A stretch of 64,000 bases of DNA from the IMG/VR virus record IMGVR_UViG_3300027782_000075, one strand, 5' to 3'. Below, one piece after another: positions 1,993 to 38,049 of the stretch; positions within the stretch are counted from its first letter, which is position 1, and every line of letters starts with the position of its first letter. This stretch comes from an uncultured virus (IMG/VR IMGVR_UViG_3300027782_000075). Its lineage: Duplodnaviria; Heunggongvirae; Uroviricota; Caudoviricetes. A program made the translations under genes and the position numbers. The notes below the pieces were generated by a model. It worked only from the letters and a program-made list of their open reading frames with translations. It did not search any database and was not told the DNA's origin.

Positions 1993-2418
1993 TTATGCTG
2001 TGAATTTTGTAATTCTTATTTCACAGGTTTCGGGTAATCCACAACTTTTTAAGTAGTTGTTGATTAAACTCATCATATTCACCCGACCAACAGGATTAGA
2101 TGAGTGAACGTAAACTTGAGGTAATGGAGTATTGGTTTCAACACTTTCCTCCACCAAAAACTTACAAGAATCCATACCAGTTTTTTCTAAAATATTGTCA
2201 TAATTTAGAGTGTTATTAGGTTTAGCGTTTGCATAGTATTCTGCAATTGCACTTTCTCCCAAATCATGGTCAAGTGATATTTCCTCAATATTTCCTAAGC
2301 CCAATTTTTGAACGGTTTCAACGAACTCATCATGATTTCTTACAACAACCCATTCATTATCTATTGGCGTACGTACGTCATCAAGATAGATACGGTAAGA
2401 CATTAAATTTTTTTCCAT
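1993..2418 (-). CDS. Cyclic-phosphate-processing receiver-like domain protein
   Basis: Motifs YLDDVR, ISLDHDLG and VHSSNPVG. Confidence 0.7.
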   Translation of the reverse strand: MEKNLMSYRIYLDDVRTPIDNEWVVVRNHDEFVETVQKLGLGNIEEISLDHDLGESAIAEYYANAKPNNTLNYDNILEKTGMDSCKFLVEESVETNTPLPQVYVHSSNPVGRVNMMSLINNYLKSCGLPETCEIRITKFTA

Positions 2419-2421
2419 AGT

Positions 2422-3102
2422 TCAAATATAAGTAATTTCTTTTGTTTCAGTATCATACTCCACAACTATAGGTTTGTGTGCATGTTCGTAACTATCGTTA
2501 AGAACAGATGCATTTAGAAATTCAATTCCACCCATTGTCTTTTGACCGTAACCATCATGGATGTGACCACAAACGTGAATTTTTGGTTTAACCTCCACGA
2601 TTTTACGATATAATTCTTCACAACCGACACGACCTCCGATCGGAGCGTAATCCAAAATACCGTATGCTGGCCCGTGAGTGATTAGGATGTCGACATCATC
2701 TGGTATTTTTTCCCATTTTGCTGCCAATTCTTCTCCTCTTGGAAGATTAAACGCCCAATTATGAAATTCAGGTTGCCAAGGACTACCATAAAATTTGATT
2801 CCATCAATGGTCACATCATTGTCAAACAAATAGATTACTCCCAAATCTTTGAACTCTATATCGATATCAGTTTGTTGTTCAAATCCAAAGTCGTGATTTC
2901 CTGCAATGAAAATTTTATGTTCAAATTCGGTATTTGAAAACCACTCCAAAAACCCGTTGATTTCGTGTTTTTGTCCCATACTTGTACAGTCACCCGCGTG
3001 TACGAGGATATCACCACTACCCAATATGTTTCCCATCCCCTTACTTGTAAGGTGTTTGTGTTTGTTGTGAGTGTCAGAGATGAATGTTATTTTCTTTTTC
3101 AT
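2422..3102 (-). CDS. Calcineurin-like metallophosphoesterase
   Basis: Motifs SDTH, HAGD, GNHD, THGP and CGHIH. Start placed at MKKKIT. Confidence 0.9.
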   Translation of the reverse strand: MKKKITFISDTHNKHKHLTSKGMGNILGSGDILVHAGDCTSMGQKHEINGFLEWFSNTEFEHKIFIAGNHDFGFEQQTDIDIEFKDLGVIYLFDNDVTIDGIKFYGSPWQPEFHNWAFNLPRGEELAAKWEKIPDDVDILITHGPAYGILDYAPIGGRVGCEELYRKIVEVKPKIHVCGHIHDGYGQKTMGGIEFLNASVLNDSYEHAHKPIVVEYDTETKEITYI

Positions 3103-3231
3103 AATCTTATTGCTAATTCCCATTTTAACCAACCAATAATTAGTTCCAAATCACCGTTAAGTTTTCTTGTATGGGTTATTTTTACAAAAGGAAAAATATA
3201 GATTTGCCCGTATACTTCAAATATTTTCATA

Positions 3232-16995: not shown

Positions 16996-17213
16996 AATTT
17001 ATTTTGGTTCTCCCATTCTTCGATGATGTAGTTTATGTTGTCGGATAGATAATCTTGTTTTGATAACCATTCAATGAATTCTTTAGTCCCCAAATCATAA
17101 GATTGTTCCATACATTTTTCAACTGAATTTCTATCAAAAAATCCAGTATGCACAATGTGATTATTTAATATTTTTTCTAAACTCGGTTTCATGATTCGAT
17201 TTCTTTTTGCCAA
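16992..17213 (-). CDS. Hypothetical protein
   Basis: ORF in operon. Confidence 0.5.
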   Translation of the reverse strand: MAKRNRIMKPSLEKILNNHIVHTGFFDRNSVEKCMEQSYDLGTKEFIEWLSKQDYLSDNINYIIEEWENQNKL

Positions 17214-18244
17214 AATGGTCTACTGTACTCCGGTTTTATTAATTTCCAAATAAATGGAGAAACGTCTTTCCCGTTCAACATACTGAATAATATTGATGGA
17301 TGGTCATATCCTTTCGCATTCTCAGCAAAATCCTTTTGTTCTAAATTATTTGATTTCAGTTCATTGAAGATTTCAGTGTAATCTTTGAGTATATTTTCAT
17401 ATCTGGCAACCAAATCTTTAACCGTAGTTTTCACCCAAGAATCAAATTCATCAGGGACTCTGTCCAACAATACATTCAAGTCCTTATTGTCTTTCAAATA
17501 TTCCCAAATGTCCACATTTGAAAACTCGGTCAATAATCTGTGAAGATAAACGTAATCTTCACCCTTTATCTTCATTCTAAGACCACTTCTGAATTTAACA
17601 ACATAACCCTCCCTTTCTTTGGAGATAGAGGATTTGAGGTTCTTATAATCTTGAATTCCGTCGTATTTTTTGATTACAGGTAATCCCGTTTCTTTATTTA
17701 TCAATAATAATGAATCATGTTCGAGTTCTTTGCCATTAGCATTACTAATCATCGACAAAACAACCAAAGATTCATCACTACCGTAATCACATACAATTCT
17801 ATTCTGAGGGTAGATTATTTCGACTAAAGTAGTATATCCTTTCGGGATAGGCTCCACATTATACTTCTCATCTAATATTTGTCTTGCTCTTATTGATTGT
17901 GAAGAAGTAAATGACCCTTTACTAGCGATAATCCATTTACCTTGATACCAAAACAAAATACCTAAAGATCCATCAAGTTTTTCATATACTTCGAAATCTT
18001 CGTTGGGAATTTCTTGAGGGGAATGTTCTTCCAAATTGAAAAACTTATCAAATGATTTTGCTATCACATTACCTTGATTGTCCAAAATTAATCCTCTACA
18101 ACTTTTGGTGATATTATCCCACAATTTTTCGTATTGGGTTTTTCTGGTGTAGTTGTATATAGATAAAGAAAGGGTTGGATGGTCATTTTTGACCACCAAA
18201 CCCTTTTCAATGTAATCATTCAATATGTTTAAGTCGAAGTTCAT
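17189..18244 (-). CDS. RNA ligase (T4 Rnl1-like)
   Basis: Motifs CRGLIL, FDKFFN, motif I EKLDGS, EGYVV and KIKGEDY. Confidence 0.88.
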   Translation of the reverse strand: MNFDLNILNDYIEKGLVVKNDHPTLSLSIYNYTRKTQYEKLWDNITKSCRGLILDNQGNVIAKSFDKFFNLEEHSPQEIPNEDFEVYEKLDGSLGILFWYQGKWIIASKGSFTSSQSIRARQILDEKYNVEPIPKGYTTLVEIIYPQNRIVCDYGSDESLVVLSMISNANGKELEHDSLLLINKETGLPVIKKYDGIQDYKNLKSSISKEREGYVVKFRSGLRMKIKGEDYVYLHRLLTEFSNVDIWEYLKDNKDLNVLLDRVPDEFDSWVKTTVKDLVARYENILKDYTEIFNELKSNNLEQKDFAENAKGYDHPSILFSMLNGKDVSPFIWKLIKPEYSRPFWQKEIES

Positions 18245-25695: not shown

Positions 25696-26181
25696 TTATC
25701 CAAAAGATTTTTGAAATTCTGTCCAAACGTTTAATAAGACCACGTCATCGTACATTATAGGTGGTTCATATGCTGACCTACTCATTGACATTTTAGCCTC
25801 CTCAGGGGTCTTATTATCCTTCTGTCGATTACATTTGGAACAACAAGTTACCAAGTTTGTCCATTCGTTTGTTCCTCCTCTAGATTTTGGTAATACGTGG
25901 TCTAAGGTTAAATGTTTTTTTGACCCACAATAAACACATTCATATCCATCTCTTTTGTAGATTCTGCTACGGTTTGGTTTATTCAATCTTGTCCTATGTT
26001 TGATATATTTCAAAAGACGTATGATAACTGGTCGTACGTATTTGTTATACCCAGTAATGATTGGATTTTCCCCAGATCTTACAATTTCTGCCTTACCTTT
26101 GGTGACCAACACAAATCCTCTATGAACACTTGTCACGTTCAAGGGTGTGTAGTCAGAATTCAAAACTAATACTCTACTCAT
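25696..26181 (-). CDS. HNH endonuclease (McrA-like)
   Basis: Motifs VLVLNSDY.PL, CVYCG, TLDHVLPKSRGG and CCSKCN. Confidence 0.9.
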   Translation of the reverse strand: MSRVLVLNSDYTPLNVTSVHRGFVLVTKGKAEIVRSGENPIITGYNKYVRPVIIRLLKYIKHRTRLNKPNRSRIYKRDGYECVYCGSKKHLTLDHVLPKSRGGTNEWTNLVTCCSKCNRQKDNKTPEEAKMSMSRSAYEPPIMYDDVVLLNVWTEFQKSFG

Positions 26182-26334: not shown

Positions 26335-26406
26335 GGACCCGTAGCTCAGAGGAAGAGCAGCGCTCTCATAAAGCGAAGGTCGGGATATCATGATTCCCCG
26401 GGTCCA
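26335..26406 (+). tRNA. tRNA with CAT anticodon (Met or Ile2), non-canonical T-loop
   Basis: Acceptor GGACCCG/CGGGTCC; loop CT-CAT-AA; T-loop ATCATGA. Confidence 0.7.
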
Positions 26407-28719: not shown

Positions 28720-29370
28720 ATGGTGGAAACAACAATTATCAACGAAGATTTTAGAAACTGCGACATACCAACAGGATTAACAATAACCGACCCACCTTAT
28801 AATCAAGAATATTCATACAACGAATACAAAGACAAGTTAACTGAACAGGATTATATTGAGTTATTATCCAAAATCCCAACTCCTTGTGTCATTATTCATT
28901 ACCCAGAAGAAACAATCAACTTGTTACCAAAGGCAATAAATGATAAATGTGAACAGGTTGTTTGTTGGGTGTATAACTCCAACACAGGGAAACAAAGTCG
29001 ATTGATATCATGGTGGGGTTGTAAGCCGGACTTCAGGAAAGTCAGACAGGAATATAAAAATCTCAAAGACAAACGTATTCAAAAAAGAATTGCTGAAGGA
29101 AAGACTGGTGCCAAACTTTATGATTGGTGGGAAATTAATCAGGTAAAGAATGTCAGCAAAGAAAAAACCGAACACCCTTGTCAAATTCCTGAGGAAGTAA
29201 TCCGAAGAATTATTTTGACAACCGCACAACCAAATCAAACAATTATTGATGTGTTCGGTGGAAGTGGGACGACAAGTAAGGTAGCTCAAGAGTTGGGATT
29301 CAACTCAATTAGTTATGAAATCGATGAGAAGTATTGTGAAATTATGAAACATCGGGTTGAAAGTATCTGA
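28720..29370 (+). CDS. DNA methyltransferase (N6-A/N4-C, beta-type)
   Basis: TDPPY precedes HPCQIP and DVFGGSGTT. Confidence 0.9.
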   Translation: MVETTIINEDFRNCDIPTGLTITDPPYNQEYSYNEYKDKLTEQDYIELLSKIPTPCVIIHYPEETINLLPKAINDKCEQVVCWVYNSNTGKQSRLISWWGCKPDFRKVRQEYKNLKDKRIQKRIAEGKTGAKLYDWWEINQVKNVSKEKTEHPCQIPEEVIRRIILTTAQPNQTIIDVFGGSGTTSKVAQELGFNSISYEIDEKYCEIMKHRVESI

Positions 29371-29379
29371 AACTTTCAT

Positions 29380-29387
29380 TATATTTG
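29380..29387 (+). promoter_or_regulatory. Bacteroidota sigma-A -7 element TAnnTTTG (also at 26253, 30299, 30664, 33799, and 39081 on minus)
   Basis: Motif recurs upstream of RNA genes and early-type genes. Confidence 0.65.
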
Positions 29388-29396
29388 TAGAATAAT

Positions 29397-29717
29397 GTCC
29401 GGGTGATGAAATCGGTAGACATGCAAGACTTTAGAGGTAGACATGAATACTTTTATTAAAGTATTAAAGTTTACAAAATTGAGTGCCTGAGGGGAAACCT
29501 TCAGAGTAGAATTCCTCAAATTCGGTGAACCTTTTGAAATGGGAATACCGAGCGAAGCCCGAGAGGGAACGTGTAGAGACTAGACGGGGAACACCTAAAT
29601 CGAGAGATATGGTGAAGGTATAGTCCAGACCACAAACCGTGAGGGTAGTGAAAACTATAGTGGTAAGAAAATCTTGTGGCTTAGGCCGTGCGGGTTCAAG
29701 TCCCGCCCCGGATACCA
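29397..29717 (+). tRNA. trnL: tRNA-Leu(TAA) split by a group I intron (exons 29397-29431 and 29668-29717)
   Basis: Joined exons give CAAGA-CT T^AA AA-TCTTG, a Leu-type variable arm, T-arm and CCA. Confidence 0.9.
29432..29667 (+). mobile_element. Group I self-splicing intron (trnL-UAA type), no ORF
   Basis: P AAATTCGGTGAA, Q AATACCGAGC, R GTGTAGAGACTAGACGGG, S GAAGGTATAGTCC. Exon ends in U and intron ends in G. Confidence 0.9.
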
Positions 29718-29753
29718 AACACTATCGTTCTTTGGAATAAAGGAGAAAATTAT

Positions 29754-30005
29754 ATGGATTTAGTATCATTTATTTTAGGAATGTCTATAGTTGTGGTCAT
29801 TGCTGTGGCAGTGGTTGCGGTTATTGCTTTTGTTAGAGTGAATAAACAGAAGGAAGAAATTAAACAAATAAATCAGTTTCTCGCAAGAGAAATTGAAAAT
29901 CAAATGAGAGATCGTGATAGAATTATTGACGATATTTATCGAACAATCGATTCACGACTTGATAAACTTGAAAGTAGATTGAACGCCGCAAGGCATAAAG
30001 ATTAA
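29754..30005 (+). CDS. N-terminal TM coiled-coil protein
   Basis: Start at MDLVS with AAGGAG upstream; enclosed by a long inverted repeat. Confidence 0.65.
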   Translation: MDLVSFILGMSIVVVIAVAVVAVIAFVRVNKQKEEIKQINQFLAREIENQMRDRDRIIDDIYRTIDSRLDKLESRLNAARHKD

Positions 30006-30043
30006 ATAAAAACTTTCAAAGACGATAGTGTTATTCACATATT

Positions 30044-30205
30044 ATGTTCGGATTATTCAAGAAAAAAACAGAAAAAGAAAAATTACAGGAAACTTATGAG
30101 AAAATGATGGCAGATGCTTATAAATTATCTCATACAAACAGAACCGCATCTGACAAACTTCTGGCTGAAGCCGAAGAACTTGCGAAAAAAATATACGGTC
30201 AGTAA
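30044..30205 (+). CDS. Lacal_2735-family-like small protein (53 aa; not in ORF track)
   Basis: MFGLFKKKTEKEKLQETYEKMMADAYKLSHTNRTASDKLLAEAEELAKKIYGQ resembles the flavobacterial family from memory. Confidence 0.7.
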   Translation: MFGLFKKKTEKEKLQETYEKMMADAYKLSHTNRTASDKLLAEAEELAKKIYGQ

Positions 30206-30210
30206 TATTT

Positions 30211-30285
30211 GTCCCCGTAGCTCAGCTGGATAGTAGCGATTGCCTTCTAAGCAATAGGTCACACGTTCGAATCGTGTCGGGGATA
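30211..30285 (+). tRNA. tRNA-Arg(TCT)
   Basis: ATTGC-CTTCTAA-GCAAT; full cloverleaf. Confidence 0.92.
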
Positions 30286-30310
30286 CAAAATATTTCAGTA
30301 TATTTGTATT

Positions 30311-30399
30311 GTGATTGAGGAGCACGATTTAGATACACAAGCTCAATTACAAACTGGGTGACACGGGAACGATTCAGATACTAGTGTTACCCTTTTTTT
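30311..30399 (+). ncRNA. Candidate ~90-nt small RNA of two hairpins with shared ACGATTYAGATAC loop
   Basis: Own TATATTTG promoter; the second hairpin is followed by a U tract. Confidence 0.55.
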
Positions 30400-30468
30400 A
30401 TTAGATATCAGAATAAATAATTTTACAAAATAAAAATATTTCATACATTAGAAGTACTTATCAATACA

Positions 30469-30558
30469 ATGAGAACTACAAGTCAACATATTAACAGTAA
30501 TAGTCAACAAGAGAATTGTTGTTATGAAAGTATTTGCCCTGTAGTTCGGATGTCATAG
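30469..30558 (+). CDS. Putative attenuator leader peptide (29 aa)
   Basis: MRTTSQHINSNSQQENCCYESICPVVRMS*, overlapping alternative pairing segments. Confidence 0.55.
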   Translation: MRTTSQHINSNSQQENCCYESICPVVRMS

Positions 30559-30594
30559 AAAGTAATTTTTTAATTTAAGTTAAATTAAATTTTT

Positions 30595-30631
30595 AGACCC
30601 CGAACTCTTAAAAAAAGTTTGGGGTTTTTTT
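30595..30631 (+). terminator. Intrinsic terminator (attenuator 3:4 hairpin)
   Basis: AGACCCCGAACT/AGTTTGGGGTTT plus T run. Confidence 0.75.
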
Positions 30632-30683
30632 ATGACATGTTTTTGTTCTTTGAAATATTGTAGTATCTTTGTAAGACAAACAT

Positions 30684-30757
30684 GCTCCGGTCGTCTAATT
30701 GGTTAGGACATCCCCCTTTCACGGGGAAGCTTACGGGTTCGAGTCCCGTCCGGAGTA
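30684..30757 (+). tRNA. tRNA-Glu(TTC)
   Basis: TCCCC-CTTTCAC-GGGGA; cloverleaf. Confidence 0.92.
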
Positions 30758-30882
30758 CTGACACGAGAGGCAACCGAAGGCATACTAGACACTGTTTAGG
30801 CAATGGGAACGATCACACAGAATACCTCTCTCTCGTAGGTAAGTTTCAAGTTCTGTTGACTGTGGGGAAAGTCCCACTCTAT

Positions 30883-30971
30883 AGTCAGGTGGTGTAATGG
30901 TAGCACTCGGTGAAGTAGACGCAGTAATGTAGTCCCAATCCGTAGTACAGGTTCGAATCCTGTTCTTACTA
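30883..30971 (+). ncRNA. tRNA-like RNA 1 (AGTCAGG family), no canonical anticodon arm
   Basis: D-arm, T-arm ACAGG-TTCGAAT-CCTGT and acceptor-like stem; central arm ~35 nt. Confidence 0.6.
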
Positions 30972-30985
30972 CAAATAAAAAATAT

Positions 30986-31120
30986 ATGAAATGGATTATT
31001 AGACAATTTGGAAACGTATGGTGTTTATTTGTACATGGCTTTGTTTTAGATAAACACAAAATGCATAAAGCATATGGACCACAAGAATGTCAAAAATGTG
31101 GTAGGTGGTGGGATTTATAA
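30986..31120 (+). CDS. Small putative zinc-binding protein (44 aa; not in ORF track)
   Basis: MKWIIRQFGNVWCLFVHG...ECQKCGRWWDL*. Confidence 0.5.
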   Translation: MKWIIRQFGNVWCLFVHGFVLDKHKMHKAYGPQECQKCGRWWDL

Positions 31121-31127
31121 TAGTCAG

Positions 31128-31352
31128 GTGAAAAAATTAAAAGTTGTGGAAAAAGAAATAAGTAAAGAAACTGATGAGTTTATTGATAAATTAGACCATC
31201 TGTGTTGGGAACATGGCTTTGAAATTTGGCCAACTGACACTATTAACAAAAGAAATGAAGACGGCTCATATCCCACCTTTACTATTCATAATATAGGTAG
31301 TGGTGAAACAGTAAGATTGATATATGTCGATGGTGACGGAAGAGGTAAATAA
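31128..31352 (+). CDS. Hypothetical protein
   Basis: Likely GTG start inside an AGTCAGGTG copy. Confidence 0.45.
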   Translation: MKKLKVVEKEISKETDEFIDKLDHLCWEHGFEIWPTDTINKRNEDGSYPTFTIHNIGSGETVRLIYVDGDGRGK

Positions 31353-31359
31353 TTAGGCT

Positions 31360-31468
31360 AGTCAGGTGGCGGAATTGGTAGACGCTAGGGAGTTGGTACA
31401 AAAACTCTATCAGATGCATTGATAATGTACCTCATACATCATACAGGTTCGAATCCGGTTCTAACTAC
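31360..31468 (+). ncRNA. tRNA-like RNA 2 (AGTCAGG family) with extra central hairpins
   Basis: Leu-like D-arm GCGGAATTGGTAGACGC and GGTTCGAATCC. Confidence 0.6.
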
Positions 31469-31538
31469 GCAAAAAACAAATAAGATGGAGTTTCTTTACC
31501 CTTTCGAGGATGAGTTTTAGAAATCTAAATTATTATAT

Positions 31539-31610
31539 GGTGGCCGTAGCCTAGTGGGAGGGCGGAAGTTTGTGGCACTTCAGGTAAGAGTTCGATTCTC
31601 TTCGGTCACA
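31539..31610 (+). tRNA. tRNA-His(GTG)
   Basis: GAAGT-TTGTGGC-ACTTC; encoded G-1; A at position 73. Confidence 0.85.
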
Positions 31611-31614
31611 CAAC

Positions 31615-31682
31615 AGTCAGGTGGTGTAAATGGCAGCACACAGTAGTTAACTGAGGAGCGGGTTAGAAACCCGTCCTGACAC
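31615..31682 (+). ncRNA. tRNA-like RNA 3 (AGTCAGG family), shortened anticodon arm
   Basis: GTCAGG/CCTGAC stem, D-arm, CAG-TAGTTAA-CTG arm, T-loop TTAGAAA. Confidence 0.55.
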
Positions 31683-31691
31683 CTTATCAAT

Positions 31692-31765
31692 GGTCAGATA
31701 CCCAAGTGGCTTAAGGGGCTTGTCTGCAAAACAAGTATCCATCGGTTCGAATCCGATTCTGACCT
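31692..31765 (+). tRNA. tRNA-Cys(GCA)
   Basis: CTTGT-CTGCAAA-ACAAG; U73. Confidence 0.92.
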
Positions 31766-31783
31766 CATTTAATTAATTAAAAT

Positions 31784-32200
31784 ATGAAAATTGTAATTGT
31801 AAGCGGTTATTTTAATCCTGTTCATAAGGGACATATTGAATATTTCAATAAGTCCAAAGAACATGGTGATAAACTCTATGTTATCGTCAATAACGACAAA
31901 CAGAGAGAGTTGAAAGGTAGTAAAGAATTCCAAGATGAAGATGAAAGAATGTTCATCATCCAAAACCTTAAAATGGTTGATAGAGTATTTCTTTCAGTTG
32001 ACACAGATCGAACTGTGTGTAAGACAATCGAATTGATCCATTCTTTTGGGGATAGGGACGACGAATTCTTATTTGCCAATGGTGGGGACCAAAACAATAA
32101 TAGCATCCCTGAGACACCTATTTGTGATTGGTTGGGGGTTAAATTGATTGATGGACTTGGAGATAAAATCCAATCTTCATCTTGGTTGTTGAAGAAGTAA
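31784..32200 (+). CDS. Cytidylyltransferase-family (HxGH) nucleotidyltransferase
   Basis: Motifs SGYFNPVHKGH, VIVNND, FANGGD and KIQSSS. Confidence 0.85.
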   Translation: MKIVIVSGYFNPVHKGHIEYFNKSKEHGDKLYVIVNNDKQRELKGSKEFQDEDERMFIIQNLKMVDRVFLSVDTDRTVCKTIELIHSFGDRDDEFLFANGGDQNNNSIPETPICDWLGVKLIDGLGDKIQSSSWLLKK

Positions 32201-32271
32201 ACATCTATGGTGAAATGGCATCATACCGGATTCCAAACCCGTTGTTCCAAGTTCGAGTCTTGGTGGGTGTG
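32201..32271 (+). tRNA. tRNA-Trp(CCA), weak anticodon stem
   Basis: Acceptor ACATCTA/TGGGTGT; loop TT-CCA-AA; T-arm intact. Confidence 0.7.
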
Positions 32272-32282
32272 CAAAATGTAAA

Positions 32283-32487
32283 CTTCAGTACCCACACAGC
32301 AGTGGAGATGGGCTAAGTTAGATACGATTCCTCGTAGCTGGGAGTAGAATGCTGAAGAACATTTATAGGTTGATTGGGGAAGGAATGTATGTTAACCTGA
32401 TGATGGAGGTGGTACATTTGGAGTTTGGAATCATCGTAGTAATGCCAATCGTAAAAGGAGATGTCCACTGAACCATCTTCTCCTTTT
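32283..32487 (+). ncRNA. Candidate structured RNA(s)
   Basis: Stems CTTCAGTA/TGCTGAAG and GATTGG/CCAATC, a possible GATGAT/ATCATC pseudoknot, and a terminal hairpin. Confidence 0.4.
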
Positions 32488-32562
32488 CCTAATCTTTCAA
32501 AAAAAAATAAATAATTTTTTATTTTGATAGAAAAGTTTTATCTTTGTCTAAAATAATAAATT

Positions 32563-32991
32563 ATGACCATTTCTGAGACACAAAAAAATAAATTTTATGA
32601 GTTAGGGAATACATTACCAAAATGTGTAAATCCTGGATGTGAAAATGATGTTGCAGTCAGAAACTGGGGAAATTGGTCATTCAAATCAGAATGTTCTCGG
32701 TGTCAATCAGACAGAAAAAAGGGATTAATAAGGGAGGGTATCACAATTCATAAAAAAGAATATTGTGAAAATATTGACGGTCATTTAGGATTCAAATGCC
32801 CTGTTCCCACAAAAGAAAGTTGGAAAGGGTTTGAAATAGGATGTTTAGATTTGGACCACATAAATGGAGACCATAATAATAATTCAATTGAAAATGTTAA
32901 AACATATTGTAAATTGTGCCATAATAAAAAGAGCGTCGAAAGCGGCGATTGTTCTAATAAAAAAAAATCCGCAAGAATTTTTAATCACTAA
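32563..32991 (+). CDS. HNH endonuclease
   Basis: LDLDHINGDHNNN..ENVKTYCKLCH with N-terminal Cys pairs. Confidence 0.8.
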   Translation: MTISETQKNKFYELGNTLPKCVNPGCENDVAVRNWGNWSFKSECSRCQSDRKKGLIREGITIHKKEYCENIDGHLGFKCPVPTKESWKGFEIGCLDLDHINGDHNNNSIENVKTYCKLCHNKKSVESGDCSNKKKSARIFNH

Positions 32992-33788
32992 TGGAACAAA
33001 AAATTATTCATGAAGATTGTATTCAGGGGCTTAAAAAAATAAAAAATGAGATTATAAATCTAACATGGACATCACCACCATATTATAACGCTAAATCATA
33101 TAGTGAATGGCCAACATATCAAGACTATCTTGATTTCTTAAAAGATGTTTTCTCTGAAGTTTTTAGAGTTACTTTGCCAGGTAGAATGTGTATTGTGAAT
33201 CTTTCACCTGTAATTGTTCAAAGAGAATCTAGATCACATGAAAGTAAAAGATTGGCAATCCCTTTTCATTTTTTCACAATTATGGAATCTTTGGGTTGGA
33301 AATATATTGATGATATTGTTTGGGTTAAACCCGAAGGTTCTGCCATAAATAGAAACGGGGGGTTTTATCAACATCGTAAACCTGTTGCGTATAAACCTAA
33401 TTTAGTATCTGAAACTATTTTTGTATTTCAAAAACCAGCGAATTTTTTGATAGACAAAATTGTTAGGTCATATAATGGTGAAGATTTGGAAAAATCATTA
33501 GTTAAAGGTCACTATGAAAGGAGTAATGTTTGGTTAATCAACCCTGAAACAAAATCAAAACATTTAGCTCCATACCCTGAAAAACTATCGGATAATATAA
33601 TCCAATATTATTCTTTCTACGGAGATATTGTTTTAGACCCTTTTTTGGGATCAGGAACAACTTTACTTTCCTGTGAAAAATATGGTAGGAATGGTATTGG
33701 TTATGAAATTCATAAGGAATATGTGGAAATGTCTGAAAAAAGAATAGAAGAATATAGAAAGAACAATAATCAACAAGAATTATTTTAA
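32991..33788 (+). CDS. DNA methyltransferase (N4-C type, beta)
   Basis: Motifs TSPPY, HLAPYP and LDPFLGSGTT. Confidence 0.92.
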   Translation: MEQKIIHEDCIQGLKKIKNEIINLTWTSPPYYNAKSYSEWPTYQDYLDFLKDVFSEVFRVTLPGRMCIVNLSPVIVQRESRSHESKRLAIPFHFFTIMESLGWKYIDDIVWVKPEGSAINRNGGFYQHRKPVAYKPNLVSETIFVFQKPANFLIDKIVRSYNGEDLEKSLVKGHYERSNVWLINPETKSKHLAPYPEKLSDNIIQYYSFYGDIVLDPFLGSGTTLLSCEKYGRNGIGYEIHKEYVEMSEKRIEEYRKNNNQQELF

Positions 33789-33815
33789 GAAAACTTACTA
33801 TCTTTGTCGCGATTT

Positions 33816-33850
33816 GGACTCTACAGCAGGTTCGAGTCCTATCGGTCCCA
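33816..33850 (+). pseudogene. Mini tRNA remnant (acceptor plus T-arm only)
   Basis: GGACT...AGGTTCGAGTCCT...GGTCC behind a TATCTTTG promoter. Confidence 0.45.
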
Positions 33851-33851
33851 C

Positions 33852-33932
33852 AAGACAGACACACGCTTCCCACGGTGTTAAAGTACAAGGATAATGAAGA
33901 GAATAATACGTCTCCTAAGGTCTGTCTAAACT
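33852..33932 (+). repeat. 81-nt structured element, copy 1
   Basis: Identical to 35105-35185; closed by AGACAGAC/GTCTGTCT. Confidence 0.9.
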
Positions 33933-34002
33933 GTCTCATGGTGTAACGGTAGCACAAGTCACTTTGGTTGACTTAGTTCAGGTTCGAATCCTGATGAGAT
34001 AT
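33932..34002 (+). tRNA. tRNA-Gln(TTG)
   Basis: AGTCA-CTTTGGT-TGACT; cloverleaf. Confidence 0.9.
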
Positions 34003-34007
34003 CAAGT

Positions 34008-34056
34008 TATTCATGTTCCAAAACATGAAAAAACAGTAAGTTTTGGAACATGAATA
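34008..34056. repeat. Perfect 17-bp inverted repeat between tRNAs
   Basis: TATTCATGTTCCAAAAC / GTTTTGGAACATGAATA. Confidence 0.8.
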
Positions 34057-34140
34057 GAGAATTGCCTGAGTGGTTAAAGGAGCAGATTGCTAATCTGTCA
34101 TCTCGAAAGGGATGCATTGGTTCGAATCCAATATTCTCTG
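34056..34140 (+). tRNA. tRNA-Ser(GCT)
   Basis: GCAGA-TTGCTAA-TCTGT, long variable arm, G73. Confidence 0.9.
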
Positions 34141-34145
34141 CATTT

Positions 34146-34288
34146 TGTAAGGTGTTGAAATTGGCAGACAATCCCCGCCTGTCTCGTGGGGGAGGATCAT
34201 CTGATAAACGAAGGATAATGGGTTGACCACAATCATGTAATGTCCTTTGGCTAAAGACCTCGTGGTGGTTCGAATCCATCTCTTACAG
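34146..34288 (+). tRNA. tRNA-Asp(GTC)-like RNA with ~70-nt variable-region expansion
   Basis: Acceptor TGTAAGG/TCTTACA, G73, CCCCGC-CTGTCTC-GTGGGG, T-arm GGTGG-TTCGAAT-CCATC. Confidence 0.65.
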
Positions 34289-34297
34289 CATAAAAAA

Positions 34298-34371
34298 GCG
34301 GGTATAGCTCAATTGGCTAGAGTGCCGTCCTTCCAAGTCGGAAGTTGTGAGTTCGAATCTCACTACCCGCT
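34298..34371 (+). tRNA. tRNA-Gly(TCC)
   Basis: GCGGGTA/TACCCGC; CT-TCC-AA; U73. Confidence 0.92.
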
Positions 34372-34387
34372 CTTTTACTTACAATAA

Positions 34388-34461
34388 TGGAATATAGCTC
34401 AGTTGGTTAGAGCGCTATCCTGATACGGTAGATGTCGGTGGTTCGAGTCCACCTATTCCAA
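34388..34461 (+). tRNA. tRNA-Ile(GAT)
   Basis: CTATC-CTGATAC-GGTAG; cloverleaf. Confidence 0.9.
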
Positions 34462-34462
34462 C

Positions 34463-34798
34463 ATGGAAAATGTAATCAAGAAAAATAAAAACAAGGTAAA
34501 ACTTGAGAAGATTGTAAAGGAGTATAATGATGCAAGTTCTTATGAAATTTGGGAGGGTGTCCGAGATAATTTTATCTTTGGATTCATCGCGGCAACCTTG
34601 GTTGTTTTTATCGCAACTCAGACTGATTTGGCGGTTTTAATAGGTTATTTGACTTATTATTTCTTTATGGGTAAAATTGTTAATAGACCTAAATATGTTA
34701 CAGATTTGGGTAAGTTAATTGTATTTCCAATACCCTCGGCTCTCGGTGCTTTTGCGGGGTATAAACTTTCATATTACTTTTTACAATATTTAAGTTAA
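34463..34798 (+). CDS. Membrane protein
   Basis: Three hydrophobic segments. Confidence 0.65.
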   Translation: MENVIKKNKNKVKLEKIVKEYNDASSYEIWEGVRDNFIFGFIAATLVVFIATQTDLAVLIGYLTYYFFMGKIVNRPKYVTDLGKLIVFPIPSALGAFAGYKLSYYFLQYLS

Positions 34799-36906: not shown

Positions 36907-37101
36907 TTAACTATTATCAAAGTTAGTTTTGTTTAATTCTTTTATAGTAATTTCATTATGTTTCCACATTTTCCATGTGTTAAATTCTTTGAGAGATTCT
37001 AAAGTTTTTTCATGTACTAAGATAAAACCTTCGGGAGCAACTCCACCAAACTTACGAACTTCACCTTCTTCTTCCAATATTTTTTTTATGTTAACTAGCA
37101 T
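36907..37101 (-). CDS. Hypothetical protein
   Basis: ORF in operon. Confidence 0.5.
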   Translation of the reverse strand: MLVNIKKILEEEGEVRKFGGVAPEGFILVHEKTLESLKEFNTWKMWKHNEITIKELNKTNFDNS

Positions 37102-37700
37102 GATAAATATTTTATTATTTTTTCTTTTATTCCACTTTGTTTGATTCCTTCATCACATTGAGGAGTCCAAACAAAGTTCTCCAATCCCCAATCTCTGTCG
37201 TATGGCCCATAATAACTCGCATCAACATGAGTACCCATATGAAGGTCATCAACTGCAACCCAATGTGTAACTTCGGGATGTGATTTTAACCATTCTTTAA
37301 TCTCAAAGTGTCTTTCTTGTTCTTGACCATCGGTCCTATTCCAATCAAAATCAGACGGAACACGACCTTCATCTAACCAATTTGTGTAATGAAACACTTC
37401 GGTGAATCCGATTGGTTTTTTGATGATACCTTGAGATGTGTAGTATTCTCCCAACTCTTCCAATGTACCATGTAATCTCCAATCGGAACTTACCACGATT
37501 TCAGCACCAGTGGTTTCCAATATTTGATTTAGGATTTTAACCGCCTTTACGTCAAAGTTATCGAAACGATACTCAACTGGTAATTGGTTATTATGGTCAA
37601 AGACTGGATTTTCACCTAATTTTTTTTGTTTTTTATGTCGGGAACCCCAGTTATTACTGAGACAAATTACCCCATCATTATCTAAGAATATTACTTTCAT
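37095..37700 (-). CDS. HAD-superfamily phosphatase of the RNA-repair (Swiss-army-knife) type
   Basis: Motifs FLDNDGV, VVSSDWR and VAVDD. Confidence 0.8.
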   Translation of the reverse strand: MKVIFLDNDGVICLSNNWGSRHKKQKKLGENPVFDHNNQLPVEYRFDNFDVKAVKILNQILETTGAEIVVSSDWRLHGTLEELGEYYTSQGIIKKPIGFTEVFHYTNWLDEGRVPSDFDWNRTDGQEQERHFEIKEWLKSHPEVTHWVAVDDLHMGTHVDASYYGPYDRDWGLENFVWTPQCDEGIKQSGIKEKIIKYLSC

Positions 37701-37701
37701 T

Positions 37702-38049
37702 TTATTTCCAAAATACTTGTACTGAAACAATTATGAATGCTAAAATTAAACAGATTATTGTCTTCGGAGTCATATTTTCTTGAAACAAGGTAGATGACAA
37801 AATTGTGAATATGACAACACCTAAAGCAAATCCAATCAATCTGCTAGGCCAAATCTGACCTCCAAATCCTTGTACATAAAGATTAACGGATTTGATGTAA
37901 AGGTAACTGATTGGAATACCTGATAGTAAGAGTAACCAAAGGTATTTCTCTGACCAACCATATTTGATTGACCCTTGTAGCTGTATAAATGATCCTATTT
38001 GACCTAAAATCATTAACAGTGTCGCTAGTATTATTTTTGTGATATCCAT
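37702..38049 (-). CDS. Four-TM small membrane protein (DMT/SMR-like)
   Basis: Four hydrophobic helices. Confidence 0.6.
   Translation of the reverse strand: MDITKIILATLLMILGQIGSFIQLQGSIKYGWSEKYLWLLLLSGIPISYLYIKSVNLYVQGFGGQIWPSRLIGFALGVVIFTILSSTLFQENMTPKTIICLILAFIIVSVQVFWK

Follow-up and report, generated by a model that had tools for sequence, protein, structure and literature searches.

That bacteriophages T4 and T5 produce small stable RNAs from their transfer RNA (tRNA) regions has been known for about half a century; in the parts of the literature cited here the job of these RNAs is still unknown, and the function of T4 RNA C is still called so (PMC3014915, PMC9697503). The T5 record NC_005859 annotates two of them, RNA1 (30501-30644, 144 nucleotides, nt) and RNA2 (32959-33083, 125 nt), as "tRNA-like stable RNA with unknown functions". 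Here, we analyze a stretch of 64,000 nt from an uncultured virus of the Caudoviricetes (IMG/VR record IMGVR_UViG_3300027782_000075; this whole stretch is referred to as the window), which contains three tRNA-shaped elements, E1 (30883..30971), E2 (31360..31467), and E3 (31615..31682), all on the + strand. The explanation that we favor, by a rather narrow balance, is that these elements, and in another design a fourth one, E4 (34146..34288, + strand), are anticodon-less RNAs built on a phage leucine (Leu) tRNA frame, matured like tRNAs, and carrying swappable structured arms. As judged by sequence comparison, they belong to a very large uncatalogued phage RNA family, in which the top half of a Leu-tRNA is combined with an exchangeable folded insert in place of the codon-reading arm.

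Of the RNAs known so far, those of T4 and T5 come nearest to the family. Their traits, that is, an acceptor-like terminal helix with a T arm in a molecule that is overlong or has no anticodon arm, are present in E1–E4. T5 RNA1 and RNA2, like E1–E4, lie within the tRNA region of the phage and on the tRNA strand, their stability being the annotation of the record. RNA1 has the Leu-type D arm GCCGGAATTGGTAGACGGG and a T arm, as in the family; RNA2 has the T-arm sequence of the family, CAGGTTCGAATCCTGTC (a shared string of 17 nt), a 7-base-pair (bp) acceptor CATTCTA/TAGGATG followed by A-C, and a long insert instead of the anticodon arm. The acceptor sequences and inserts of both differ from those of the family, and T5, a siphovirus of E. 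coli, has one copy of each, whereas the family is many-copy and fast-swapping and belongs to uncultured T4-like lake phages. Two small stable RNAs of T4, RNA C (species 1 RNA, 139 nt) and RNA D, are encoded where its tRNA cluster ends and on the same strand as the tRNAs. RNA C has at its 3' end CCGGG-TTCGAAT-CCCGG and then a strand that pairs imperfectly with its 5' end; however, no Leu-type D arm is seen in RNA C, RNA D is without a T arm, and T4 has no multi-copy family. Model R1 yields 24.3 bits for T5 RNA2, 18 for T5 RNA1, and 20.7 for the 3' part of T4 RNA C, which is the range of ordinary tRNAs. The T4 and T5 RNAs appear to have the same design as the family, as a likeness in design and not as demonstrated homology.

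Transfer-messenger RNA (tmRNA) similarly combines an acceptor/T-arm frame with a large non-tRNA insert. It is charged by alanyl-tRNA synthetase (AlaRS), which ignores the anticodon, the same logic as is proposed below for leucyl-tRNA synthetase (LeuRS) and the family frame. The family differs in keeping a full D arm, in having inserts of 20 to 110 nt, and in its leucine- rather than alanine-type identity. A tmRNA was rejected, since ARAGORN reports none in the window, Rfam none at the gathering score, and none is seen at E ≤ 1 in 29200-34500. YrlA (RF02553), the Y-RNA-like identity suggested in the earlier note, does not decode either; it imitates the acceptor, D, and T arms of tRNA and ends at a Ro-binding stem, not at an acceptor. 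This suggestion did not stand: there is no RF02553 match in 30600-31800 up to E = 10 and none on E1–E4, the sole match in 29200-34500 (24.4 bits, gathering score 69) lies across two ordinary tRNAs, and no TROVE/Ro protein is found among the 94 open reading frames (ORFs) of the window. Finally, the engineered "tRNA scaffold" of Ponchon and Dardel for recombinant RNA expression, in which the anticodon arm is swapped for any structured RNA of choice, is reportedly processed and stabilised by the cell as a tRNA; it is man-made, whereas the family is natural, uses a class II (Leu) frame, and carries hundreds of inserts.

The constant frame of E1–E3 and its family

The 10-mer AGTCAGGTGG occurs in the window exactly three times, always on the + strand, at 30883, 31360, and 31615 (mean of 0.07 in shuffled sequences; none of 100 shuffles reaches three), and each copy begins a tRNA-shaped element. 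The earlier note had described three elements at these positions that share the 5' end, keep the acceptor, D, and T arms, differ in their centers, and have no canonical anticodon loop, and this description is fully borne out. The canonical 7-bp acceptor, the D arm with G18G19, and the T arm with T54-T55-C56 are present in E1 and E2 save for one acceptor mismatch each; the anticodon arm (5-bp stem, 7-nt loop, U33, purine at position 37) is absent in E1, E2, and E3.

E1 has the acceptor AGTCAGG/TCTTACT (with the mismatch C4:U69 and the pair G7:U66), the D arm GTGTAATGGTAGCAC, a 4-nt variable loop, the T arm ACAGG-TTCGAAT-CCTGT, and the discriminator A (model R1, 55.6 bits). Its center is an insert arm of 35 nt at 30908-30942, capped by a GUAA tetraloop at 30924-30927; this arm, proposed earlier from the single sequence, is recovered in the consensus of the E1 subfamily. 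Rfam assigns E1 to the tRNA family RF00005 with 38.9 bits (gathering score 29), yet leaves 29 central nucleotides unaligned. The tRNA-Tyr(gta) proposed by ARAGORN for E1 was rejected, as its loop AAGUAGA has no U33 and the proposed stem is absent from the subfamily consensus.

E2 has the acceptor AGTCAGG/TCTAACT (mismatch C4:A69), the D arm GCGGAATTGGTAGACGC of E. coli-type tRNA-Leu, a T arm with one A:G mismatch, and the discriminator A (model R1, 62.8 bits); its RF00005 score of 21.4 bits, with a 46-nt insert in the alignment, is under the gathering score. The 60-nt insert of E2 is predicted by RNAfold to form three hairpins, and GGTACA (31395-31400) is complementary to TGTACC (31426-31431), a possible pseudoknot to which the earlier note had pointed. 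E3 is a 68-nt mini form (model R1, 40 bits; no match from ARAGORN or Rfam) with the acceptor AGTCAGG/CCTGACA (mismatch A1:A72), a 5-nt variable loop, the T arm GCGGG-TTAGAAA-CCCGT, hence A at position 56, and the discriminator C (C73). What is left of the anticodon arm in E3 folds as 4 bp around a loop of 5 nt or, just as well, as 3 bp around the loop UAGUUAA, so that the shortened arm with the latter loop, as originally drawn, is one of two equally good foldings.

The pattern scan of IMG/VR, written over the three 5' ends in the window, matches more than 127 stretches. The 3' frame GGTTCGAATCCTGTCCTGACT (up to four mismatches) is found within 260 nt of 135 of the 147 pattern matches at those loci. 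When the 5' 10-mer may deviate at one position, the loci listed contain 170 distinct elements, 68 to about 160 nt in length. Frame positions outside the search pattern are strongly conserved: T48 is present in 144 of the 170 elements, A73 in 147, and C74 in 93%; the 3' acceptor strand is CCTGACT in 141, the T loop is TTCGAAT in 109, and the T stem ACAGG/CCTGT in 137. GGTA follows the D-loop GG in 115 elements. The D arm GCGGAAUUGGUAGACGC, seen in E2 and most members, is what we take to be the E. coli-type tRNA-Leu D arm; the same type is seen in T4 tRNA-Leu and in a relative's own tRNA-Leu. Beyond the acceptor/T minihelix, the D arm, U8-A14, and A15-U48 are retained across the family. A canonical anticodon stem-loop (5 bp, 7-nt loop, U33, R37), on the other hand, is found in three of the 170 elements, vs. 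1.2 in shuffled inserts. On this count an intact tRNA-Leu with a giant variable arm was rejected for E1–E3 and the AGTCAGG family; it fits E4.

A scan anchored on the T arm, and therefore unbiased for the acceptor, yields 69 long (at least 95 nt) Leu-type elements. At least six of the seven acceptor pairs are formed in 57 of them, in 21 different stems, of which 11 are wholly different and fully complementary, e.g., GTAGATG/CATCTAC and GGGGGAG/CTCCCCT; A-C follows the acceptor in 50 of the 57. Hence, AGTCAGG is the commonest acceptor of a wider class, and covariation in the acceptor, D, and T helices shows that RNA pairing is under selection. The three elements with an anticodon stem-loop include apparent working tRNAs on the AGTCAGG frame, namely, a tRNA-Lys(UUU) (L063:2918-2988, − strand; 66 bits in Rfam) and a tRNA-Leu(UAG) (L049:1501-1582, + strand), which argues that the frame descends from working phage tRNAs. 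A further type of tRNA-shaped RNA, at L335:108-175 (−) and L345:108-175 (−), has the acceptor AGGATGA/TCATCC(T), the D arm of E3, and a 5-nt "anticodon" loop, UCUUC or GCAGA; anticodon-less look-alikes thus occur on other frames too.

Complete or near-complete relatives have one to eight members each (E ≤ 1e-6), all in a single cluster. In 185,579 bacterial and archaeal genomes the pattern has 129 matches, 27 of them with the 3' frame; those of the latter with inspected titles lie on contigs of metagenome-assembled genomes, while the remaining pattern matches look like chance in coding DNA. The bins of these metagenome-assembled genomes hint at freshwater Bacteroidota as the probable hosts. 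Among cultured phages (INPHARED) there is no record with the frame, only T-arm matches of 23-40 nt inside annotated tRNAs. No description of this family was found in the literature, in searches that did not reach most subscription journals. An observation from a cultured jumbo phage, Tenacibaculum phage pT24 (LC168164, L497), concerns a different kind of look-alike: two near-identical "tRNA-Undet" genes (2292-2370 and 2659-2737) have a long non-canonical anticodon arm and do not belong to this family, and between them lies a gene annotated as tRNA-Pro, whose T arm and 3' strand resemble those of the family. For unusual tRNA look-alikes of phages, pT24 might thus offer a model that can be grown in the laboratory.

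Inserts and their turnover among related phages

The inserts of at least 25 nt (156 in total) form 128 BLAST clusters, 107 of which are singletons. They are more stable than their dinucleotide shuffles (mean z of the minimum free energy of −0.72, t = −8.2; 38% under −1). The E1 subfamily, for which an extra scan returned 12 stretches, has in an alignment of 10 sequences a cloverleaf consensus, with all three compensatory pairs within the insert arm: 27:66, 28:65 (both sides changed in five sequences), and 37:58 (A-U in six, U-A in three). Constant features of this subfamily are the internal loop GAAGUAG/CCCAAU and the GUAA hairpin with a bulged A. The proportion of paired cells is 93.1%, vs. 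88.2% in shuffles, and the covariation is 0.192, vs. 0.113, with none of 500 shuffles reaching either value; sliding the partner columns by 1-3 positions reduces pairing to 29-41%. A second insert subfamily, from six phages, has seven compensatory pairs, three in the insert stem and four in the T stem. E3 is present among relatives in four sequence variants, whose sole in-stem change is A-U to G-U, hence no covariation signal. Words enriched in the inserts are GTAATGG (7 vs. 0.54 expected), TAATGG (12 vs. 2.5), and TTCGATT (4 vs. 0.41); since these are D-loop-like or T-loop-like, some arms seem to be assembled from tRNA modules. Rfam, run on 20 element-rich loci, finds at the gathering score tRNA matches alone, and no family for any insert.

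To compare related phages, their loci were anchored on the cytidylyltransferase-like gene just downstream of the elements (31784-32200), in whose protein the relatives have 86-99% identity. At the locus of E1–E3 the relatives carry two to nine elements with other inserts: nine elements and two orphan stubs in 3.4 kilobases (kb) of L130 (eight of the nine with other inserts), four in L129, including E2 and E3, three in L134, and two each in L136 and L138. The L129 copy of E2 has a fully paired acceptor, AGTTAGG/TCTAACT, that is, the mismatch of the window copy is compensated there. Model R1 finds members in L129-L140; the 55 loci L154-L208, which are more distant, have none at E ≤ 1e-3. Canonical tRNAs at these places in relatives, of which E1–E3 would be degraded alleles, were looked for: in none of the examined relatives, at the above level of identity, does a canonical tRNA replace E1, E2, or E3, and what the relatives carry instead is other anticodon-less elements.

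This bears on the possibility that the elements are decayed tRNA genes without a function of their own, whose ends are kept as RNase P and 3' processing punctuation for the array transcript and small mRNAs. Such an origin would agree with the canonical Lys(UUU) and Leu(UAG) tRNAs on the same frame, with the close abutment of elements to tRNAs and micro-ORFs (gaps of 1 to 14 nt), and with the fact that E1 and E2 of the window have mismatched acceptors and score poorly in folding. However, for punctuation the acceptor/T minihelix would suffice, and retention of the D arm, U8-A14, and A15-U48 would not be required; intact tRNAs are not seen at these positions in relatives; the inserts, of up to about 110 nt, are larger than the replaced arms, have more structure than their shuffles, and covary. 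The lack of an anticodon arm in 167 of the 170 elements beside a near-invariant frame is not expected from decay, and neutral decay is further disfavored because it would erode the frame and the mutually unrelated inserts equally. We consider this explanation quite unlikely. The earlier view that a retained frame with a swapped arm is something other than random decay is strengthened by the near-invariance of the frame, the 128 insert clusters, the compensatory changes in the arms, and the relatives, where the refuting condition named in the earlier note (canonical tRNAs at this locus) did not hold.

Traces of exchange are seen at the frame ends. The 9-mer AGTCAGGTG has a fourth + strand copy at 31122..31130, an orphan 5' stub with no tRNA-like remainder, located right after the stop of a 44-codon ORF (30986-31120), where a second ORF begins that extends to 31352; these two micro-ORFs lie between E1 and E2 (30986-31352, + strand), and their leaders have no Shine-Dalgarno sequence. 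In the window as in L129, L130, and L132, the stub is followed by an A-rich leader of 15 nt and then by small ORFs that differ from one another, an arrangement that suggests cassette exchange at the frame ends. The acceptor of E1 is chimeric, with the consensus 5' strand and the 3' strand TCTTACT, and TCTTAC is also the 3' acceptor strand of E4. The chimeric acceptors of E1 and E2 and the cassette differences of relatives fit recombination between short constant ends. A precedent is provided by the PeSL cassettes of T4-type phages, in whose hyperplastic regions recombination at short constant elements shuffles the small genes lying between them (PMC2839356); PeSLs, however, are promoter-plus-terminator DNA/RNA signals and not tRNA-shaped RNAs.

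The same facts, i.e., cassette-like differences among near-identical relatives, stubs directly before different small ORFs, consensus 5' strands joined to variant 3' strands in E1 and E2, and the PeSL precedent, might mean that the constant ends act mainly as DNA recombination joints, which shuffle inserts and micro-gene cassettes between co-infecting phages, with the RNA as a by-product. As a full account this seems very unlikely to us, given that the covariation of the three frame helices places RNA pairing under selection, that conservation ends within 5 nt of the RNA termini, and that the conserved bases are the tRNA tertiary set, needless for DNA recombination. A role of the ends in recombination is compatible with, not opposed to, the preferred explanation of anticodon-less RNAs with swappable arms.

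The tRNA array, processing signals, and E4

The window is a part of a large T4-like phage. By domain matches of its 94 ORFs, it encodes a gp23 capsid protein, a gp20 portal, and a T4-type terminase, and also a ClpP protease, a Clp-type AAA+ ATPase, ribosomal protein S21, an Rnl1-type RNA ligase, and further RNA-repair domains. The IMG/VR record G001 (85 kb, estimated as 28% complete) is 100% identical across 30600-31800; complete relatives are 270-326 kb long. ARAGORN finds 12 tRNA genes, all on the + strand, at 27.1-34.5 kb of the window, with no tRNA-Asp among them. The + strand array segment with E1–E3 spans 30684..31766 and consists of tRNA-Glu (30684-30758), E1, the two small ORFs, E2, tRNA-His (31540-31611), E3, and tRNA-Cys (31692-31766), with spacers of 3 nt between tRNA-His and E3 and 9 nt between E3 and tRNA-Cys. 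All four elements lie within the + strand array bounded by tRNA-Glu and tRNA-Gly.

Several other features of the window deserve mention. One more tRNA, at 26335-26406 (+ strand, 47.5 bits), is found by Rfam only, being missed by ARAGORN, and adjoins an HNH endonuclease gene at 25699-26181 (−). At 29642-29718 (+) there is a T arm, GCGGG-TTCAAGT-CCCGC, and behind it CCCGGAT-A-CCA, in which CCA is encoded; a 5' acceptor strand to match is not seen nearby, and model R1 gives 17.8 bits. The segment could terminate a longer RNA with a tRNA-like 3' end; no tmRNA is reported at this place by ARAGORN or Rfam. Three RNA-repair-type genes are located at 1996-3132 (−), encoding a cREC cyclic-phosphate receiver with a metallophosphoesterase, at 17192-18244 (−), encoding the Rnl1-type RNA ligase, and at 37098-37730 (−), encoding HAD_SAK_2 ("Swiss Army Knife" RNA repair). 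Gene sets with an RNA ligase, HAD_SAK_2, and cREC are commonly tied to the repair of cleaved tRNAs.

Conservation of the elements stops within about 5 nt of the RNA ends, with an upstream preference for A-A-N-A-U and a downstream one for C-A-A-A. A promoter-like site at 30856-30885, which overlaps the first bases of E1, was dismissed, as positions upstream of −5 are not conserved in the family. U at position −1 is seen in 85% of the elements, compared with 108 of 183 true tRNAs from the same loci; C74 is present in 93% and in 159 of the 183, respectively, A being next in 134 of the true tRNAs. CCA is encoded in five of the 170 elements and in none of the 183 tRNAs. Signals consistent with RNase P-type processing are, by these comparisons, present in the elements. 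The search of sequencing runs yields 24 runs, each with at most 18% of the words of the stretch; in the contigs of the four RNA-library runs that were compared, frame halves are fused to other inserts. One piece spans 30930-31228, and one contig follows the window sequence to 30881 and then has the frame with an L094-type insert.

E4, which the earlier note does not mention, is a tRNA-like RNA of 143 nt with the acceptor TGTAAGG/TCTTACA, a Leu-type D arm, a T arm, and the discriminator G (model R1, 22.4 bits; folding z = −1.32); it is not reported by ARAGORN and has no Rfam tRNA match at E ≤ 1. Its anticodon-like hairpin has the loop CUGUCUC, the same in all eight sequences compared (U33 is present, position 37 is U), and its variable arm is about 80 nt long. 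Compensatory changes in the eight sequences are seen at 13 of the 48 predicted pairs, mostly in the big arm; hence, the insert of E4 enlarges the variable arm rather than replacing the anticodon arm. The loop departs from that of tRNA-Asp only at position 37, and G73 is the Asp discriminator as well. E4 might be a tRNA-Asp derivative.

Possible roles of the frame and the arms

From frame and helix conservation and from the structure and covariation of the arms, which are results of sequence analysis, we infer how the elements may be expressed, processed, stabilized, and active. Lying on the same strand, they would be transcribed together with the tRNA array. The flanks suggest that RNase P would cut the 5' end between −1 and +1, that the 3' end would be matured as in the neighboring tRNAs, and that the encoded A73-C74 would be completed by the host CCA-adding enzyme. 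The predicted fold is the top half of a tRNA with its elbow, i.e., the acceptor/T helix, the D-T loop contact, U8-A14, and A15-U48, while the anticodon and variable region would be swapped for a lineage-specific structured arm projecting from the tRNA body. The frame would provide processing, folding, and stability, and the arm would be the working, diversifying part; recombination at the constant 25-27-nt ends would exchange arms and the small ORFs between elements among related phages.

Leucine identity adds a further aspect. E. coli LeuRS needs A73, A15-U48, G18G19, A20a, and the D/T elbow, whereas the anticodon and variable arms are dispensable, according to the review PMC9976931. E1, E2, and the majority of family members show these features in their sequences, while E3 has C73 and E4 has G73, and the rules of the host's own LeuRS may differ. 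Since the frame keeps this anticodon-independent identity set, leucylation is a concrete possibility, and most members, though not E3 or E4, could be substrates of LeuRS. The L063 tRNA-Lys is of interest in this respect, if LeuRS charges the frame whatever the anticodon.

The frame itself might then be the effector: multi-copy tRNA mimics, perhaps leucylated and bound by EF-Tu, would distract an anticodon-blind factor (LeuRS, a toxin that targets the CCA end or acceptor, or an elbow binder), and the inserts would serve mainly to prevent decoding and, by making the copies unlike one another, to stop them from recombining. The frame is indeed far better conserved than the inserts, including every tertiary contact and A73, the LeuRS identity set is retained, the members form one cluster of one to eight copies per genome, most inserts (107 of 156) are singletons, and the Rnl1-type ligase, HAD_SAK_2, and cREC genes of the phage are typical of tRNA conflicts. 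On the other side, insert subfamilies retain invariant unpaired motifs and compensatory stems across phages, unlike filler; E3 has neither A73 nor C56, yet is the best conserved element of the locus; and no tRNA-targeting defense or synthetase gene is linked to the elements in the window. On balance an effector role of the frame is unlikely.

Several points also weigh against the preferred explanation, that of processed anticodon-less RNAs with functional arms. Taken as single sequences, E1 (z = +0.53) and E2 (z = +1.09) fold in RNAfold no better than shuffles, although E3 does (z = −2.75), and the window copies have the acceptor mismatches C4:U69 and C4:A69; with such mismatches, chimeric acceptors, and folds, the window E1 and E2 are perhaps slightly defective and may be impaired recombinants. 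The E2 insert is found in only one other IMG/VR contig, as an identical copy (one of the 27 stretches returned by the scan for this insert is the element), which bears neither on selection nor on the possible pseudoknot. Singletons in the proportion given above would also suit inserts that are merely tolerated filler. The inserts of E1–E3 have no sense or antisense match of at least 12 nt in the 64-kb window, and 11-mer matches are at the chance level. The 5'-anchored sample was chosen by the search pattern itself, the RNA-library contigs cannot show ends, strand, or transcription, nor exclude DNA, and the LeuRS idea cannot cover all members, because E3 has no A73 and has the T loop TTAGAAA.

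If the arms are the working part, they most likely act in conflict between phage and host or between phages, a role proposed because of the fast turnover of arms between near-identical phages. A decoy role of the elements, raised in the earlier note, is possible, though unsupported. A bolder version, which we would call speculative and unlikely to hold in full, is that T4-like lake phages run a natural "tRNA-scaffold display": a Leu frame, matured by the host and maybe chargeable by LeuRS, would present hundreds of interchangeable aptamer-, decoy-, or guide-like conflict arms, with new ones arriving as cassettes swapped at the constant ends. Such a system would resemble an integron or diversity island, but made of RNA, and would at last explain T4 RNA C and T5 RNA1 and RNA2.

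What is new here is the very large size and the modularity of the family, within a kind of phage RNA that is known but unexplained. Stable RNAs of the T4/T5 type are then no oddity of two laboratory phages, but a design used hundreds of times in uncultured phages, and the old question about them gains comparative material, i.e., covarying arms, conserved loops, and turnover between near-identical genomes. There is also a practical consequence for annotation: ARAGORN labels 33 of 135 family records as tRNAs with haphazard anticodons, and where ARAGORN and Rfam call members tRNAs with meaningless anticodons, as they do for some, the number of phage tRNAs is overestimated. Should the arms turn out to be effectors, this frame would be nature's own form of the tRNA scaffold that has been engineered.

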